Shown here: positions 1 to 3,747 of the stretch, in pieces | Position numbering within the stretch: position 1 is the first letter of the stretch | How the letters are laid out: the number at the start of each line of letters is the position of its first letter | Assembly (NCBI RefSeq): GCF_003334255.1 | Contig: NZ_QOWU01000116.1 | Origin: Escherichia coli | Lineage (GTDB): Bacteria; Pseudomonadota; Gammaproteobacteria; Enterobacterales; Enterobacteriaceae | Direction: 5' to 3' (one strand) | DNA: 3,747 nucleotides | Program-made: the position numbers and the translations under genes | The notes under the pieces: generated by a model | The model's input: only the letters and a program-made list of their open reading frames with translations | Database searches by the model: none | What the model was told of the DNA's origin: nothing

Positions 1-134
1 GTGAAGACAGCGACCTCCGTCTGGCCGGTTCGGATTCGTACCTCGCAGAGGTCTTTCCTCGTTACCAGTGCCGTCACTATGACGGTTAAACAGATGACGA
101 TCAGGGCGATTAACATCGCCTTTTGCTGCTTCAT
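1..134 (-). CDS. hokD: Hok-family type I membrane toxin HokD/RelF, 3'-truncated by the window edge (first 44 codons present)
   Basis: Minus-strand ATG at 134-132 with AGGAG 9 nt upstream (complement of 144-148). My manual translation is MKQQKAMLIALIVICLTVIVTALVTRKDLCEVRIRTGQTEVAVF, which I recognise as the Hok/Gef-family toxin encoded downstream of relE in E. coli. It is below the size cutoff of the ORF track and runs off the window at position 1. Confidence 0.85.
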   Translation of the reverse strand, partial: MKQQKAMLIALIVICLTVIVTALVTRKDLCEVRIRTGQTEVAVF

Positions 135-205
135 AGCCTGCTTCTCCTGTCAACGCAAAGCAGAAGTGTCACCTTCGGTGCGAAACAGAGATGTCATGCT
201 TTGGT

Positions 206-493
206 TCAGAGAATGCGTTTGACCGCCTCGCTATATACTTCCGAGCGTTCTCTTTTCCCAACAGAAATCACGAAAACGACAACTTTCTCGTCTATAACCT
301 GGTATACAAGGCGATAGCCTGAAGACCGGAGCTTAATCTTGTAACAATCAGGCATACCACGGAGCTTGTTTGCTTCAATCCGGGGTGACTCAAGTACTTC
401 AACCAGCTTCTTTTTCAACTGTTCACGTACCGTCGAGCCCAGCTTTCGCCATTCCTTTAGTGCCCGCTCGTCAAAATCCAGAAAATACGCCAT
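206..493 (-). CDS. relE: RelE type II toxin (ribosome-dependent mRNA endonuclease)
   Basis: 95-aa ORF MAYFLDFDERALKEWRKLGSTVREQLKKKL...VISVGKRERSEVYSEAVKRIL, recognised from memory as E. coli RelE. Its ATG (493-491) overlaps the relB stop codon by 1 nt (TGATG on the minus strand), the canonical coupled arrangement. Confidence 0.96.
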   Translation of the reverse strand: MAYFLDFDERALKEWRKLGSTVREQLKKKLVEVLESPRIEANKLRGMPDCYKIKLRSSGYRLVYQVIDEKVVVFVISVGKRERSEVYSEAVKRIL

Positions 494-732
494 CAGAGTT
501 CATCCAGCGTCACACGTACTGGCTTAGGATTACGAAGCCGTTCTTTCACTATCTCCACAAGTTCAGCATCTTCATCACTCAGGAGTGTCTGTTTGAACGG
601 CAAGCGTTCATTGTCAGCGATATACTCGAGCATGAGACGAAGCGCTTCAGAAGGAGTTACACCCATTTTTTCAAGCGCGGCGTAAGAACGCGCTTTAAGT
701 TCATCGTCAATACGCAGGTTAATGCTACCCAT
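493..732 (-). CDS. relB: RelB type II antitoxin (ribbon-helix-helix autorepressor)
   Basis: 79-aa ORF MGSINLRIDDELKARSYAALEKMGVTPSEALRLMLEYIADNERLPFKQTLLSDEDAELVEIVKERLRNPKPVRVTLDEL, recognised as RelB. GAGGTG Shine-Dalgarno sits 6 nt upstream of the ATG (complement of 739-744). The gene lies immediately upstream of relE in the same orientation. Confidence 0.96.
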   Translation of the reverse strand: MGSINLRIDDELKARSYAALEKMGVTPSEALRLMLEYIADNERLPFKQTLLSDEDAELVEIVKERLRNPKPVRVTLDEL

Positions 733-742
733 GTCTTACACC

Positions 743-796
743 TCTTGTAATTACAAATGTCATTACAAGTATCGCACTACAACATGCTTAGGGCAA
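743..796 (-). promoter_or_regulatory. relBE promoter with relO operator
   Basis: Minus strand reads TTGCCC (791-796) - 17 nt - GATACT (768-773), followed by CTTGTAATGACATTTGTAATTACAAG, which holds two TTGTAAT repeats and a perfect 12-bp palindrome TTGTAATTACAA (745-756). This matches the known RelB/RelB-RelE autoregulatory operator architecture. Exact -35/-10 assignment is by eye. Confidence 0.7.
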
Positions 797-1062
797 GTCA
801 CGAAGGAAGTCAGAAAGTAGTCGTAAGAACGGTGATCACTGTCCGCTTTGTGCCAGGAGCAGCCATTGCTAAGTCCATCCTGTATTGTGCAGGTCAGCTC
901 GTTTTTAAAGAGTCCGGCCATCATCTTACTGGTACAGACACCATATACTTTGTGACGGTCAGGCTACATATGCACAACTCAACTTATTCATCTATTTTTT
1001 GCTTTAGCATGTCAGTGTTGCTTTCTCGTCGGCGGGTGAGCGGTGACCTGACCTGTCGATAA
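757..1062 (+). CDS. ydfV: Hypothetical 101-aa ORF divergent from relB; position and length correspond to the annotated E. coli prophage ORF ydfV; coding status doubtful
   Basis: It is the only ORF of 60 aa or more in the relB-flxA gap that does not overlap a confident gene. Its ATG lies inside the relO operator, it has no Shine-Dalgarno, and the product is S/T/V/R-rich with no motif I recognise. The symbol is assigned from synteny (hokD-relE-relB-ydfV-flxA) and length as I recall them, not from sequence identity. Confidence 0.3.
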   Translation: MSLQVSHYNMLRASHEGSQKVVVRTVITVRFVPGAAIAKSILYCAGQLVFKESGHHLTGTDTIYFVTVRLHMHNSTYSSIFCFSMSVLLSRRRVSGDLTCR

Positions 1063-1214
1063 AGGAACGTAACACGTTTTATGCAACACCCGCATGCGGC
1101 AGAAAATTATTGCCGAACGTTTACCCCTGTCAACAAGCTTTACTTTCTGAGGCGCGCCAGCCCGCGAGGAAAACAATCTGAACATCAAACAATTAATGAC
1201 ACAAGAAATACGAT

Positions 1215-1241
1215 TAAAGATTTTTTTGTGCATGCCGATAG
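1215..1241 (+). promoter_or_regulatory. Sigma-28 (FliA) class 3 flagellar promoter driving flxA
   Basis: TAAAGATT (1215-1222) - 11 nt - GCCGATAG (1234-1241) against the consensus TAAAGTTT-N11-GCCGATAA, a 7/8 match in each element. It sits 24 nt upstream of the flxA start codon. Confidence 0.8.
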
Positions 1242-1264
1242 TGCTTTTTTAAAAGGAGAAATCT

Positions 1265-1597
1265 ATGTCTGTCACAATTCAGGGAAATACCTCAACCGTT
1301 ATTTCAAACAACTCCGCCCCGGAAGGAACATCAGAAATAGCCAAAATCACAAGACAAATTCAGGTGCTGACTGAAAAGCTTGGGAAAATCTCATCGGAAG
1401 AGGGGATGACGACACAGCAGAAAAAAGAAATGGCTGCATTGGTACAGAAGCAAATTGAAAGCCTCTGGGCTCAACTGGAGCAGTTGTTAAGGCAGCAGGC
1501 AGAGAAAAAGAATGAAGACGCGACAGTTCAGCCTGATAAAAAAGAAGAGAAAAAAGACGATACAAATACCGCTGGCACCATTGATATTTACGTCTAA
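1265..1597 (+). CDS. flxA: FlxA, FliA-regulated protein (small hydrophilic, coiled-coil-like, K/E/Q-rich)
   Basis: 110-aa ORF with AAGGAG (1253-1258) 6 nt upstream of the ATG, a sigma-28 promoter directly upstream and an intrinsic terminator directly downstream. The product MSVTIQGNTSTVISNNSAPEGTSEIAKITRQIQVLTEKL... is recognised as FlxA of the E. coli Qin prophage. Confidence 0.9.
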   Translation: MSVTIQGNTSTVISNNSAPEGTSEIAKITRQIQVLTEKLGKISSEEGMTTQQKKEMAALVQKQIESLWAQLEQLLRQQAEKKNEDATVQPDKKEEKKDDTNTAGTIDIYV

Positions 1598-1611
1598 GTG
1601 ACAGCCGTATT

Positions 1612-1634
1612 GTGGCCCTCATCGGGCCACTTTT
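1612..1634 (+). terminator. Rho-independent terminator of flxA
   Basis: GTGGCCC (1612-1618) - TCATC loop - GGGCCAC (1624-1630) followed by TTTT (1631-1634), starting 15 nt after the flxA stop codon. Confidence 0.75.
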
Positions 1635-2033
1635 CGCCATCAGCCTTTTCTTTAAAGACATATTATCTTTGTATCATTTCTGATAGTTAACATTACAAGA
1701 TATAAGTAATGGACGCACTCCCAATTAGTCTATTTAAATCGCCACGAGTTTAACTGACAACCCATGATCAATTATGAATTGCAACTATTTCTGTAGTCAC
1801 TTTTGTGGGGACAGTCCACAAAACTGCCAACTTCCGCTTCTTGCTCTTAGCGGACATTAGCATAGGCTATTTACCATAACGCCTCATTACGCGCACCGCC
1901 CAGACTGACTCAGCGCGTTTCTGGCATATCCCCGGTAAAACAAGTAACAAACCACCCGAAAATGAACACCAGAAACGCGACTTAAGAATCTACCCTATGA
2001 ATGGATATGCACTCAACCGAATCGATCTTGGTT

Positions 2034-3347
2034 TCAATCTTTTTTATCGGGATCAGGCTTCTTTTTAGGTAACTTCGGGGGCTTAACTTGCTGATGACTT
2101 TGCGTTCGGCGCGTAAGCCAGGGATGGTCAGCTTTAGGTTTAACATAGTATTTTGAGCGTAAATCAATACGGGCATTATCCACTCGTTCATGGACACTCT
2201 TTTCATCATCCAGTGGTATAGGCTCCGGGCCATCAACATACTTTTCCCAGCCCAGCGCTTTCCCGTCATACAGAACGTTAATTTCACCGTCAAAGTTCTC
2301 GCATACAGTAACAACCGAATGCCTAAGTCGATATCCCCGGCCCTCACTGCGTACCTGAAACGCACTGCTTTTGTACTGGAAAGTGAGATTTTTAGACAGA
2401 ACGCGCTTCGCCTGTAGGCTGAAGATATAACCCAGTTCCTCTTCAGAATGGTGCACATCAAGATGAGCATTATCAGTAGTACGAGGCGACGTAGCGAACC
2501 GGTTGTTATAGGCTTCAATAAAGGTCGGCAACCATGCATTTGCTGTTTCAATATCACTGATATTCTGAAGCCGCATTTCTTTGACCAGCCTGTCCTGTAG
2601 TGTCTGATTGGCGCGCTCTACCCGCCCTTTTGCCTGCGGGCTGTTGGCATGGATTGGCTCGATGCCCAGTGTCTTTATCGCACGAGTGAACTGGGTCAGC
2701 TCACCTTCCCGCTCTGGGTTATTTACCCTGAATATACTGTGTCTATCAGAGTAGAGAGCGAGCGATACGCCATGATCATTAAGGTAACCCCGGAGGGTTT
2801 CCATGTAAGCCCGGGTTGTTTCAGCAGGCACAAAACGCAACGCCATCAACGCACTGGTGGCATCATCAATGAAAACGATCAGTGTACATCTGGGGCCTCG
2901 ATTTTCAAACCAGTCATGAGGTGAGCCATCAATCTGGATCAGTTCACCGTAAGATGGTCGTCGCATGCGGCGTTGATATATACGGGCAATTTTACGACGG
3001 CGTTCACGCCATAACCCCTCTTCTATCATCCACTTTCTGAGAGTTTCAACGGATAAAGATAAACCGTGTATCTCGCGCAATTTTTCGCACGCAAACGTAG
3101 GTCCAAAATCAGCGTAACGGCCTTTGAGGAGTGAAATTACTGTTGCTCTGAATTCAGTAGAAAAGGAATTATTAGGACGCTTTCCACGTCGGTGGGAAAC
3201 CAGACCAGAAGGCCCTTCATTTCTATACCGTTGCACCAGACGTTTAACCTGCCGAATAGAAATGCCAATGCGTGCCGCAGCTTGTTCCTGAATAATCTGA
3301 AGTCGGTGGAGTTCCTTATGACTCATCGTAACAGTCTCTTTGATCAT
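2034..3347 (-). CDS. DDE transposase with N-terminal helix-turn-helix and integrase-core (rve-like) catalytic domain; IS481/ISNCY(IS1202-group)-like
   Basis: 437-aa ORF. The N-terminus (ELHRLQIIQEQAAARIGISIRQVKRLVQRYR) looks like a helix-turn-helix. Candidate catalytic triad in typical rve context and spacing: D in LIQIDGSPHDW, D in LALYSDRHSIF, E in AKGRVERANQTLQD. The C-terminus is basic and proline-rich (KPPKLPKKKPDPDKKD). GGGGGA Shine-Dalgarno sits 6 nt upstream of the ATG. Family placement is by motif recall, not alignment. Confidence 0.9.
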   Translation of the reverse strand: MIKETVTMSHKELHRLQIIQEQAAARIGISIRQVKRLVQRYRNEGPSGLVSHRRGKRPNNSFSTEFRATVISLLKGRYADFGPTFACEKLREIHGLSLSVETLRKWMIEEGLWRERRRKIARIYQRRMRRPSYGELIQIDGSPHDWFENRGPRCTLIVFIDDATSALMALRFVPAETTRAYMETLRGYLNDHGVSLALYSDRHSIFRVNNPEREGELTQFTRAIKTLGIEPIHANSPQAKGRVERANQTLQDRLVKEMRLQNISDIETANAWLPTFIEAYNNRFATSPRTTDNAHLDVHHSEEELGYIFSLQAKRVLSKNLTFQYKSSAFQVRSEGRGYRLRHSVVTVCENFDGEINVLYDGKALGWEKYVDGPEPIPLDDEKSVHERVDNARIDLRSKYYVKPKADHPWLTRRTQSHQQVKPPKLPKKKPDPDKKD

Positions 3348-3355
3348 GAAAAATC

Positions 3356-3375
3356 CCCCAGAGAATTGTCTGGGG
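3356..3375 (-). promoter_or_regulatory. Stem-loop in the transposase 5' leader that would sequester the Shine-Dalgarno
   Basis: The minus-strand RNA would read CCCCAGA-CAAUUC-UCUGGGG, 7-bp arms with a 6-nt loop. The 3' arm overlaps 4 of the 6 nt of the GGGGGA Shine-Dalgarno (3354-3359), which lies 6 nt before the ATG at 3347. Confidence 0.4.
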
Positions 3376-3524
3376 ACATTTTAGAATGGTTCAAAGGGGA
3401 CATTACAGCTTGGTGTTAACAATAGCCTGCTTCTCCGTGCCTTTCGGCACGTAAGAGGCTAACCTACATGTGTCTAGCATGAAATTGGCCTCAGATTAAT
3501 GTTAAGCGTCTTGCAGGACGCGTA

Positions 3525-3707
3525 ATGTTAACTGGGGCTTTTCTCTATCTGCCGTTGGTGTCCATGCCCGAGGCAGATAGCCTCAAGCACCCGCAGTCAT
3601 TCTACTTAACTAAGATTTCCCCGCAAACCGTTTTTGTCCAGCACAGTAAATATCCAACTAAACCAATGGAGTTCGCTGTATTTACCGCCAGTATTCAATG
3701 CACATGA
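3525..3707 (+). CDS. Hypothetical 60-aa protein, unknown function
   Basis: ORF with AGGA (3515-3518) 6 nt upstream of the ATG. Its TGA stop (3705-3707) overlaps the ATG (3704-3706) of a following in-frame-shifted ORF, the ATGA arrangement typical of translationally coupled genes. I do not recognise the product. Confidence 0.3.
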   Translation: MLTGAFLYLPLVSMPEADSLKHPQSFYLTKISPQTVFVQHSKYPTKPMEFAVFTASIQCT

Positions 3708-3747
3708 CCGCCATGAACACCCCTAAAAAAAGGGCATTTATATATCC
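3704..3747 (+). CDS. 5' end of a hypothetical ORF continuing beyond the window (MTAMNTPKKRAFIY...)
   Basis: ATG at 3704 overlaps the stop of the preceding ORF, with a second in-frame ATG at 3713. The reading frame is open to the window edge. Only 14 codons are visible, so the call rests on the coupling geometry alone. Confidence 0.25.
   Translation, partial: MTAMNTPKKRAFIY

Follow-up and report, generated by a model that had tools for sequence, protein, structure and literature searches.

Hairpins that hide the ribosome-binding site are a classic means by which insertion sequences keep transposase levels low and ignore outside promoters, and IS10 and IS50 are reportedly protected from outside activation. 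Here we analyze a stretch of 3,747 nucleotides from Escherichia coli (contig NZ_QOWU01000116.1; hereafter the window, which means the whole stretch). It is part of a Qin-type prophage and carries, on its minus strand, a transposase gene of the ISEsa1 type, whose leader can form a hairpin over its Shine-Dalgarno (SD) sequence. We propose that this hairpin would act in cis to brake the translation of transcripts carrying the element end and, in ISEsa1, might also terminate them. From RNA folding and comparison of relatives, we put the probability of this reading at roughly 0.55. By analogy, the brake would probably be of the same kind as those of IS10, IS50 and IS200.

The left end of IS200 combines a bidirectional terminator with an SD-sequestering stem-loop (Beuzon et al. 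1999, as summarized in PMC4513863). Going by that summary, ISEsa1 resembles IS200 in its weak or undefined promoter, in a terminator-like hairpin placed near the end against impinging transcription, and in a stem-loop of the 5′ untranslated region (5′-UTR) that pairs the SD with an anti-SD sequence. Going by the same summary, IS200 has two separate inverted repeats and is regulated by an antisense RNA and Hfq as well, whereas in ISEsa1 a single hairpin has both shapes. A consensus scan of positions 3200–3747 found no antisense promoter in the ISEsa1 leader region, unlike in IS200, and the ISEsa1 transposase is an unrelated DDE, TnsB-like enzyme. The likeness to IS10 and IS50 is that the read-through RNA holds an end-proximal sequence pairing with the translation initiation region, and that RNA started inside the structure would in principle escape this pairing. 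However, in IS10 and IS50 the internal promoter and start have been mapped, whereas our scans found no credible promoter; moreover, the 5′ arm in ISEsa1 is a putative transposase-binding repeat.

In elements of the IS1202 family, the termini are TGT and the inner part of the inverted repeat recurs once more internally; this further copy has been taken, by analogy with Tn7 TnsB, as an additional transposase-binding site (PMC10132070). One member, ISAjo2, shares with ISEsa1 a TnsB-like transposase, the TGT termini, the second internal 19-bp copy, and insertion beside one specific site in one orientation (PMC10132070). It differs in inserting at dif sites with 5-bp duplications, whereas ISEsa1 units carry cargo and have 15–16-bp duplications at the SD-to-start region of hok genes. 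Leader RNA structure is not discussed in the ISAjo2 paper, and the words "translation", "terminator" and "promoter" do not occur in it (PMC10132070). An SD-hiding hairpin in the IS1202 family, built from a probable transposase-binding repeat, would extend the principle to a family with unstudied expression, for which the ISEsa1 leader offers a simple test system.

A predicted fold of the transposase leader over its translation start

The following features define the leader:

2034–3347, minus strand: open reading frame (ORF) of an ISEsa1-type transposase, 437 amino acids, shortened with respect to plasmid copies by an in-frame deletion of 27 bp
3345–3347, minus strand: ATG taken as the true start codon, opening a conserved MxKETxTM extension and pairing with CAU (3388–3386) in the long fold
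3354–3359, minus strand: SD sequence GGGGGA of the transposase, with six bases, UUUUUC (3353–3348), between it and the AUG
3355–3376, minus strand: SD hairpin, with 5′ arm UCCCCAGA (3376–3369), loop CAAUUC (3368–3363) and 3′ arm UCUGGGGG (3362–3355)
3327–3407, minus strand: longer irregular hairpin enclosing the SD hairpin, present in minimum-free-energy folds and in the consensus fold of eight leader variants

The ORF scores 452 bits against the NF033594 (ISNCY) model, for which the cut-off is 250, and shares 99% DNA identity with plasmid copies of 446 amino acids annotated as "IS1202-like element ISEsa1 family transposase". Judged by these matches, it is a transposase of the ISNCY/IS1202 type, ISEsa1 subgroup.

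On the minus strand, the leader reads TAAAAT (3383–3378), G, UCCCCAGA, CAAUUC, UCUGGGGG, A, UUUUU (3353–3349), C and AUG (3347–3345). An earlier sequence-only reading of this DNA had noted a 7-bp stem, CCCCAGA/UCUGGGG, with a 6-nt loop. The stem is exact, and an additional U-G pair lengthens it to 8 bp. The claim that the hairpin buries the SD was also borne out: four of the five G residues of GGGGGA lie in the stem and the fifth is in the U-G pair, the probability of the SD being paired, P(SD paired), reaching 0.93. The computed folding energy is by no means near zero, at −12.8 kcal/mol for the hairpin alone and −13.7 kcal/mol with the flanking AAAAU/AUUUU pairs. The hairpin appears in every fold computed, and its surroundings fold better than most dinucleotide shuffles: the 38-nt context reaches −14.5 kcal/mol (z = −2.35) and the 101-nt context −26.6 kcal/mol (z = −2.56), with 3 of 200 shuffles equally good in each case. 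Pairing of the SD window is 0.92, compared with 0.65 ± 0.10 when the 5′ leader is shuffled, and none of 60 shuffles attains 0.92. A scan against Rfam found no family that covers the hairpin itself.

The SD hairpin is also nested in a longer fold that pairs the AUG, a feature that had been passed over previously. In this predicted fold, UGUAAUGUC (3407–3399) pairs with GAC/GUUACG (3336–3327), CUUUGA (3396–3391) with UCAAAG (3343–3338), CAU (3388–3386) with AUG, and AAAAU with AUUUU, so that one long irregular hairpin spans the region from the element terminus to codon 7 with the SD hairpin at its tip. Where the RNA begins upstream makes little difference. For RNAs starting at hok +1 (3592), 60 nt outside the element, or at the element terminus, P(SD paired) is 0.93 and opening of 3365–3336 costs 19–23 kcal/mol. 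Thus, in the computed structures, read-through RNA folds with both SD and AUG occluded, as in IS10 and IS50, and the leader forms a 5′-UTR stem-loop pairing the SD with an upstream anti-SD, as in IS200.

The proposed brake would work as follows. In RNA carrying the last ~50 nt of the left end, UCCCC AGA of the inner end repeat is predicted to pair with UCU GGGGG of the SD, and nested helices would also pair the AUG and first six codons, blocking 30S subunits from loading. In ISEsa1 itself, AUUUUU comes after the stem, two bases ahead of the AUG, and part of the incoming transcription may stop there. RNAs affected in this way would mostly enter from outside, here from a predicted hok promoter that lies ~170 nt upstream of the element end and points inwards. 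The net effect would be low transposase synthesis, insulated from the strength of outside transcription.

The start codon

ISfinder lists the ISEsa1 transposase as 439 amino acids (PMC10132070), and one RefSeq record, a pseudogene, uses the second ATG, 3326, as the gene start. Both place the start at 3326, in which case the hairpin would stand 30 nt upstream of the ribosome site. Conservation, on the other hand, favors ATG 3347. The seven codons ahead of the second Met are kept as protein (MIKETVTM compared with MTKETISM, MVKETITM, VAKETITM, VTKEHITM and LNKGTITM), the changes between lineages in this extension include synonymous ones, and relatives carry ATG, GTG or TTG exactly at the position of ATG 3347. 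In addition, the predicted duplex of SD and anti-SD at the 16S 3′ end has an energy of −8.4 kcal/mol before ATG 3347, compared with −2.9 kcal/mol before ATG 3326. Protein conservation, start codons and the SD duplex together point to ATG 3347 as the real start, and hence to GGGGGA as the working SD, covered by the hairpin.

Retention of the hairpin in relatives

The leaders of the E. coli copies and of most plasmid copies are identical and carry no information on structure; 730 of 806 E. coli records are at least 99% identical, too uniform for a structure test. Eight distinct leader variants, denoted here by locus labels such as L005, were collected by looking for the invariant end motif among plasmids, genomes and metagenomes. 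A 17-mer scan of genome contigs gave mostly chance matches, the only relatives among them being L012, L016, L035 and L037.

The SD-hiding hairpin proved not to be confined to the window. In every ISEsa1-clade variant found (L005, L006, L015, L016, L054, L070 and L074), the SD falls within a hairpin, formed in different ways, whose energy lies between −9.3 and −17.4 kcal/mol. L005 has one changed loop base and has lost the run of U residues after the stem. L054 has two loop changes and one A to G change in the 5′ arm, which yields a G-U pair, and in L016 a C to U change in the 5′ arm does the same. These single 5′-arm changes fit RNA pairing on the sense strand only. Elsewhere the stem itself has been rebuilt: AGA/UCU is replaced by UUU/AGA in L015, GUCCCU pairs with AGGGAC in L074, and in L070, which is without the inner repeat, CCCCU of the outer repeat pairs with AGGGG. 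L006 uses another register, in which AUGUCC is again paired with GGAUAU.

In the alignment of the eight variants, 91% of the cells of the consensus structure are paired, compared with 46–54% when the partners are slid. Eight cells are changed on both sides, compared with 3.2 in shuffles (0 of 500 reach 8), and the covariation score was attained by 1 of 500 shuffles.

A wider set consisted of six more distant IS1202-family elements with 45–48% protein identity. In four of the six leaders (L089, L090, L091 and L092), the SD window is strongly paired. In L089, L090 and L092, the bases with which it pairs belong to the outer or inner end repeat or adjoin it, and in L091 they lie elsewhere in the leader. 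Taking the family as a whole, five of seven leaders exceed their shuffled-leader controls. SD hiding by the element's own binding repeats thus looks like a trait of the IS1202 family, as far as can be judged from these leaders.

Two further observations concern the same elements. L089, L090 and L092 (and L091) are inserted beside dif-like sites, and in L089, L090 and L092 the SD position holds a sequence complementary to the outer or inner end repeat, in L089 and L092 an inverted copy of the repeat.

The 5′ arm lies in an end repeat

The upstream half of the hairpin coincides with the repeats of the element end:

3372–3390, minus strand: inner copy of the 19-nt end repeat, ACCATTCTAAAATGTCCCC (direct repeat D4), containing TAAAAT and the start of the 5′ arm
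3396–3414, minus strand: outer copy of the end repeat, ACCAAGCTGTAATGTCCCC, within the left inverted repeat and invariant in all relatives
3387–3421, minus strand: transposase-proximal terminal inverted repeat (IRL), with the terminal TGT at 3421 and a 23/35 match to 148–182

The 24-bp spacing from inner to outer repeat is kept in L015 and L074. The flanks diverge completely up to TGTTAAC in L010, L012, L016, L054 and others. By analogy with the family, the inner repeat at 3372–3390 is a putative internal transposase-binding site. Since the 5′ arm lies within an end repeat, the anti-SD would at the same time be a protein-binding site in DNA, and this constraint would explain part of the conservation of the arm.

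Another possible reading is that the symmetry operates in DNA. The G-rich 3′ arm could repeat part of the end motif in inverted form (TGTCCCC / GGGGxCA) and be bound by the transposase or a host factor so as to repress or organize the end, with the RNA hairpin being incidental. Inverted copies of the end motif do stand at the SD position in L089 (GAGACATCA) and L092 (AGCGGAC), an inverted pair GTCCGC...GCGGAC occurs at that border of the conserved module which is distal to the transposase gene, and family ends carry several binding sites (PMC10132070). However, the ISEsa1 3′ arm (GGGGGAT) matches GGGGACA poorly, and after the A to G change of L054 and the C to U change of L016 pairing persists only as G-U in the sense RNA, whereas the DNA palindrome is broken. 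The helix register also differs among relatives, yet always covers the SD. We regard this as the least probable of the explanations considered.

No convincing internal promoter

The sequence-only reading had gone a step further and proposed TAAAAT (3383–3378) as the −10 element of an internal promoter. Transcription would then start at ~3371, inside the 5′ arm, so that native mRNA would be translated and read-through RNA silenced. The thermodynamic half of this idea holds: a hypothetical start at 3371–3370 removes the arm, lowering P(SD paired) to 0.46 and the opening cost from 19–23 to about 9.5 kcal/mol. TAAAAT also matches the −10 consensus at 5/6 positions, and in most relatives a −10-like hexamer directly precedes the C-rich arm (TAAAAT in L005, L015, L054 and L074; TGTAAT in L070).

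The promoter half fared worse. A consensus scan of both strands over 3200–3747 returned no promoter, and in a laxer scan the best −35 for TAAAAT had 2–3/6 matches, without a TG extension. The L006 lineage has a G as the critical second base (TGAAAT), and TAAAAT is absent in L070. Besides, the hexamer lies inside the 19-nt inner end repeat, within the repeated end motif CTnnAATGTCCCC, so its conservation can be explained without a promoter. In the wider family the equivalent bases are not −10-like, and L093 instead has a good TGTATAAT downstream of the repeat. The AAAA of TAAAAT can equally be read as an A-tract upstream of a terminator-like hairpin, and a weak start near 3371, though possible, has nothing beyond the hexamer itself to support it. 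What stands of the IS10/IS50 logic is the predicted occlusion of SD and AUG in read-through RNA (0.93 paired); the internal promoter, for which the scan gave no consensus match, is unsupported. The step in which native transcripts escape is pure conjecture, escape through an internal promoter is unsupported and improbable, and we consider the complete scheme unlikely.

A promoter formed at the junction of a circular intermediate, with a −35 in the distal end and the −10 TGTAAT in IRL, was also considered and rejected, the −35 match being ~3/6 by eye.

A terminator-like tail

Immediately after the stem lies one more feature, which had escaped the sequence-only reading:

3349–3353, minus strand: run of five U after the stem, a terminator-like tail found by a terminator scan

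The hairpin followed by AUUUUUC is the only terminator-like site in 3200–3747, with an 8-bp stem, five G-C pairs and a 6-nt loop. It has the shape of an intrinsic terminator, namely a G+C-rich stem, a short loop and a U-run after the stem. One alternative is that the hairpin is mainly an intrinsic, possibly bidirectional, terminator that would halt transcription from the hok side two bases ahead of the AUG, with SD pairing being secondary. An A-tract upstream accompanies the U-tract downstream, and the plus strand folds equally well (−13.7 kcal/mol) and continues with CAUUUU. Such a terminator is present at the left end of IS200, and here a predicted outside promoter is aimed at the hairpin. 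Nevertheless, one site found against 0.5 expected by chance is not significant, and the short stem does not join the U-run directly, an A lying between them. If it stood behind an internal promoter, a terminator would halt the mRNA of the element itself as well. Finally, L054 and L016 retain the U-run and L006 part of it, but it is absent in L005, L015, L070 and L074 despite their kept SD hairpin. We hold this explanation to be doubtful, though less so than the other alternatives, while termination may add to the effect of the brake in ISEsa1 proper.

Chance and constraint

A number of points weigh against a translational brake. Taken simply as an inverted repeat, the stem does not stand out from chance in 3.7 kb: there are 3 perfect stems of at least 7 bp with short loops in the window, compared with 1.5 ± 1.5 in shuffles, and ~1% of 30-nt minus-strand windows reach −12 kcal/mol or better. 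The covariation figures are supportive but short of decisive, as there are only eight sequences, several of them closely related. Moreover, the consensus structure tested was derived from the same eight sequences, and true covariation is thin. Conservation is partly forced, the 5′ arm lying in a DNA-constrained repeat and any G-rich SD being bound to pair with a C-rich motif. Two of the seven family leaders, L093 and L094, show no excess of SD pairing over shuffled leaders. Termination is not a conserved role, given the absence of the U-run in L005, L015, L070 and L074. Lastly, the copy in the window is probably an inactive relic to judge by its sequence, since it has the 27-bp deletion and a fixed single-copy position: E. 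coli copies are single, at one same chromosomal site in about 800 genomes.

Some of these points could be taken to mean that the hairpin has no function and is a by-product of a C-rich binding repeat located 10–20 nt upstream of a G-rich SD. Stems of this size turning up by chance, z-scores of only about −2, and the lack of effect in L093 and L094 all agree with this. Against it, each lineage has an unusually G-rich SD that agrees with its local repeat (GGGGG, GGGGCA, AGGGAC, GGAGACAUCA and AGCGGAC), most family leaders exceed their shuffled controls, and the loop varies while the stem is kept. We consider a by-product very unlikely. What takes the hairpin beyond chance is its position exactly over the SD together with its retention in diverged relatives.

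With regard to the deletion, it removes SINRHITQE from the N-terminal DNA-binding region (junction 3286–3291) and is situated between two TCCTGA direct repeats.

A hok leader reads into the element

Directly outside the element are two features that give the brake its likely setting:

3422–3592, minus strand: hok/sok-type mRNA leader (Rfam RF01794), directly outside IRL and reading into the element
3599–3626, minus strand: predicted hok promoter, with −35 TTGCGG (3626–3621), a 16-bp spacer and −10 TAGAAT (3604–3599)

The RF01794 match scores 104.1 bits (gathering score 59) and covers the full model, 1–157, at window 3592–3421 on the minus strand; its final AUG is broken by the first base of the element. 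The predicted promoter, a consensus match only, would start transcription at ~3592, which is position 1 of the Rfam model. The sequence-only reading had spoken of outside transcripts in general and missed this identifiable outside promoter. Judged from the sequence, outside read-through is here a specific and constitutive situation, in which hok transcription would run into the transposase leader.

The arrangement is not peculiar to the window. A sok/hok leader adjoins the element end also in L002, L003, L007 and L037, and over 20 distinct and divergent hok leaders from plasmids and metagenomes share this arrangement and its orientation. The constant orientation at hok start-codon regions suggests that insertion is specific for both site and orientation. 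As this apparent target would always put the element behind an active promoter, a brake would not be optional for it.

Several observations concern the flanks. In the element-end flanks of about 40 loci, the junctions vary by 1–2 nt (CAT/, CATG/, CTG/ and TTG/, the slash marking the junction). A second recurrent flank, GGAG(A/T)TGTATGGGTCC, is found in L008, L010, L045, L048, L069 and L072/73, and mismatched flanks in L047 suggest recombination between copies. A dif-like site beside the end, as for ISAjo2, was considered and rejected in favor of the hok leader, the resemblance to XerC/XerD sites being ~7/11 by eye. The hok leader also contains a mok-like ORF (ATG 3480, minus strand), which in REL606, where the locus is uninterrupted, shares the reading frame of hokD. 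In the window this ORF (3404–3480) runs six codons into IRL and ends at TAA 3406–3404 within the outer repeat. Translational coupling from it was rejected because the SD hairpin lies too far downstream of this stop codon to be melted.

The mobile unit and its cargo

ISEsa1 has been described as 1609 bp long, with inverted repeats matching at 15/22 positions, no target duplication and no target (Harmer and Hall, PMC10132070). Our data differ from this description. In every context, conservation of the left end reaches TGTTAAC at 3421, which is 14 bp beyond the 1609-bp ISfinder unit, and a matching end is found at the far side of the window:

148–200, plus strand: distal terminal inverted repeat (IRR), with the terminal TGT at 148, outer repeat GTGTCAC (167–173) and inner repeat ATGTCAT (191–197)
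133–147: target-site duplication beside the distal end, just before the hokD ATG (132–134, minus strand)
3422–3436: target-site duplication beside IRL, ATAGCCTGCTTCTCC on the plus strand, corresponding to the hok SD through AT of the ATG
134 downwards, minus strand: start of hokD (ATG 132–134)
206–493, minus strand: relE
493–732, minus strand: relB
Between the transposase gene and relB, plus strand: flxA and ydfV

Window 148–182 is an inverted copy of the left end (23/35 matches, including the terminal TGT), and the outer and inner repeats of IRR are 24 bp apart, the same as in IRL. The unit thus has the outer ends 5′-TGT...ACA-3′ and the second internal repeat copy that are traits of the IS1202 family. 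It extends over 148–3421 (3274 bp), has the layout IRL, tnp, flxA, ydfV, relB, relE, IRR, where tnp is the transposase gene, and is flanked by an exact 15-bp direct repeat (133–147 and 3422–3436). Read along the hok strand, the repeat is GGAGAAGCAGGCTAT and corresponds to the hokD SD through AT of the ATG. The reconstructed empty site is found uninterrupted, with 99–99.7% identity, in many E. coli including REL606 and BL21; that of REL606 has the same prophage context and is without relBE, flxA or the transposase.

Similar units exist elsewhere. Two metagenome contigs (L044 and L057) hold units of 4237 and 4600 bp with different cargo, exact 15–16-bp duplications and an intact hok next to them. 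A Phytobacter plasmid (L096; NZ_AP028049.1, 84469–97311) carries a 12,843-bp unit with nickel (ncr) and chromate (chr) resistance genes and an exact duplication. In L096, L044 and L057, relB-relE is always at the distal end and an intact Hok gene follows directly, and the module of relBE plus distal end is present on 784 plasmids. Against the published 1609 bp without a target duplication, therefore, stand units of 3274, 4237, 4600 and 12,843 bp with 15–16-bp duplications. From these comparisons, the published limits look like those of the transposase module only, which would explain the reported lack of a target duplication.

We tentatively propose, as a possibility that falls short of being probable, that ISEsa1 is the transposase module of cargo transposons of 3–13 kb (IRL, tnp, variable cargo, relB-relE, IRR). 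Their insertion into hok toxin genes would have a single orientation, fall between SD and start codon and make 15–16-bp duplications, so that tnp would always stand behind a hok promoter and leader and the hairpin would gate that transcription. The relBE-hokD ("relBEF") arrangement and ydfW of E. coli K-12 would be decayed remains. Seen in this way, the K-12 relBE-hokD arrangement would be the remnant of the insertion of the 3274-bp unit. The integration of relBE into an ancestral hokD/mokD is already known (Ramisetty and Santhosh 2016, as cited in PMC6379469). In the literature covered, which was incomplete, we found no mention of the relBE vehicle, its ends, its duplication or hok targeting.

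Among better-known transposons, Tn7 with its attTn7 targeting offers a parallel: it shares site- and orientation-specific insertion, asymmetric ends, several TnsB-type repeats and cargo genes. Unlike Tn7, the 3.27-kb unit has no TnsA, TnsC or TnsD genes, and its target is the ribosome-binding region of a toxin gene rather than a position downstream of glmS. To our mind, this setting of a hok-targeting cargo transposon is the more interesting part than the braking mechanism itself. The cargo units also suggest how relBE and the nickel and chromate resistance genes move between plasmids and prophages.

The border of the transposase module

The conserved transposase module ends at about window 1829–1833 in all contexts. 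Its border (1829–1890) contains an inverted pair of the end motif, GTCCGC...GCGGAC, and a 58-nt border segment occurs twice in L044 (unit positions 1523–1580 and 2801–2858), on either side of one cargo block. The border may be a recombination or exchange point for cargo and is the probable source of the right inverted repeat assigned to "ISEsa1". The rest of hok was looked for beyond the border at 1829 of the 1.6-kb "ISEsa1", and none is there; it lies past the true distal end at 148.

Just outside the border, window 1802–1822 forms a perfect 7-bp hairpin, TTTGTGG GGACAGT CCACAAA. It holds another TGTCCCC (minus strand), resembles 3366–3378 (repeat D13) and is not present in L044 or L057; it may be due to chance.

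Annotation of ydfW and flxA

The name ydfW of K-12, as RefSeq places it, corresponds to the last 49 codons (2034–2183) of the transposase ORF. In the RefSeq annotation, one intact ORF is cut into a "partial" transposase and a separate "YdfW". Finally, GTGGCCC TCATC GGGCCAC followed by TTTTCG is located at window 1612–1630, 15 nt past the flxA stop codon, and by its sequence this hairpin is a textbook intrinsic terminator for flxA.

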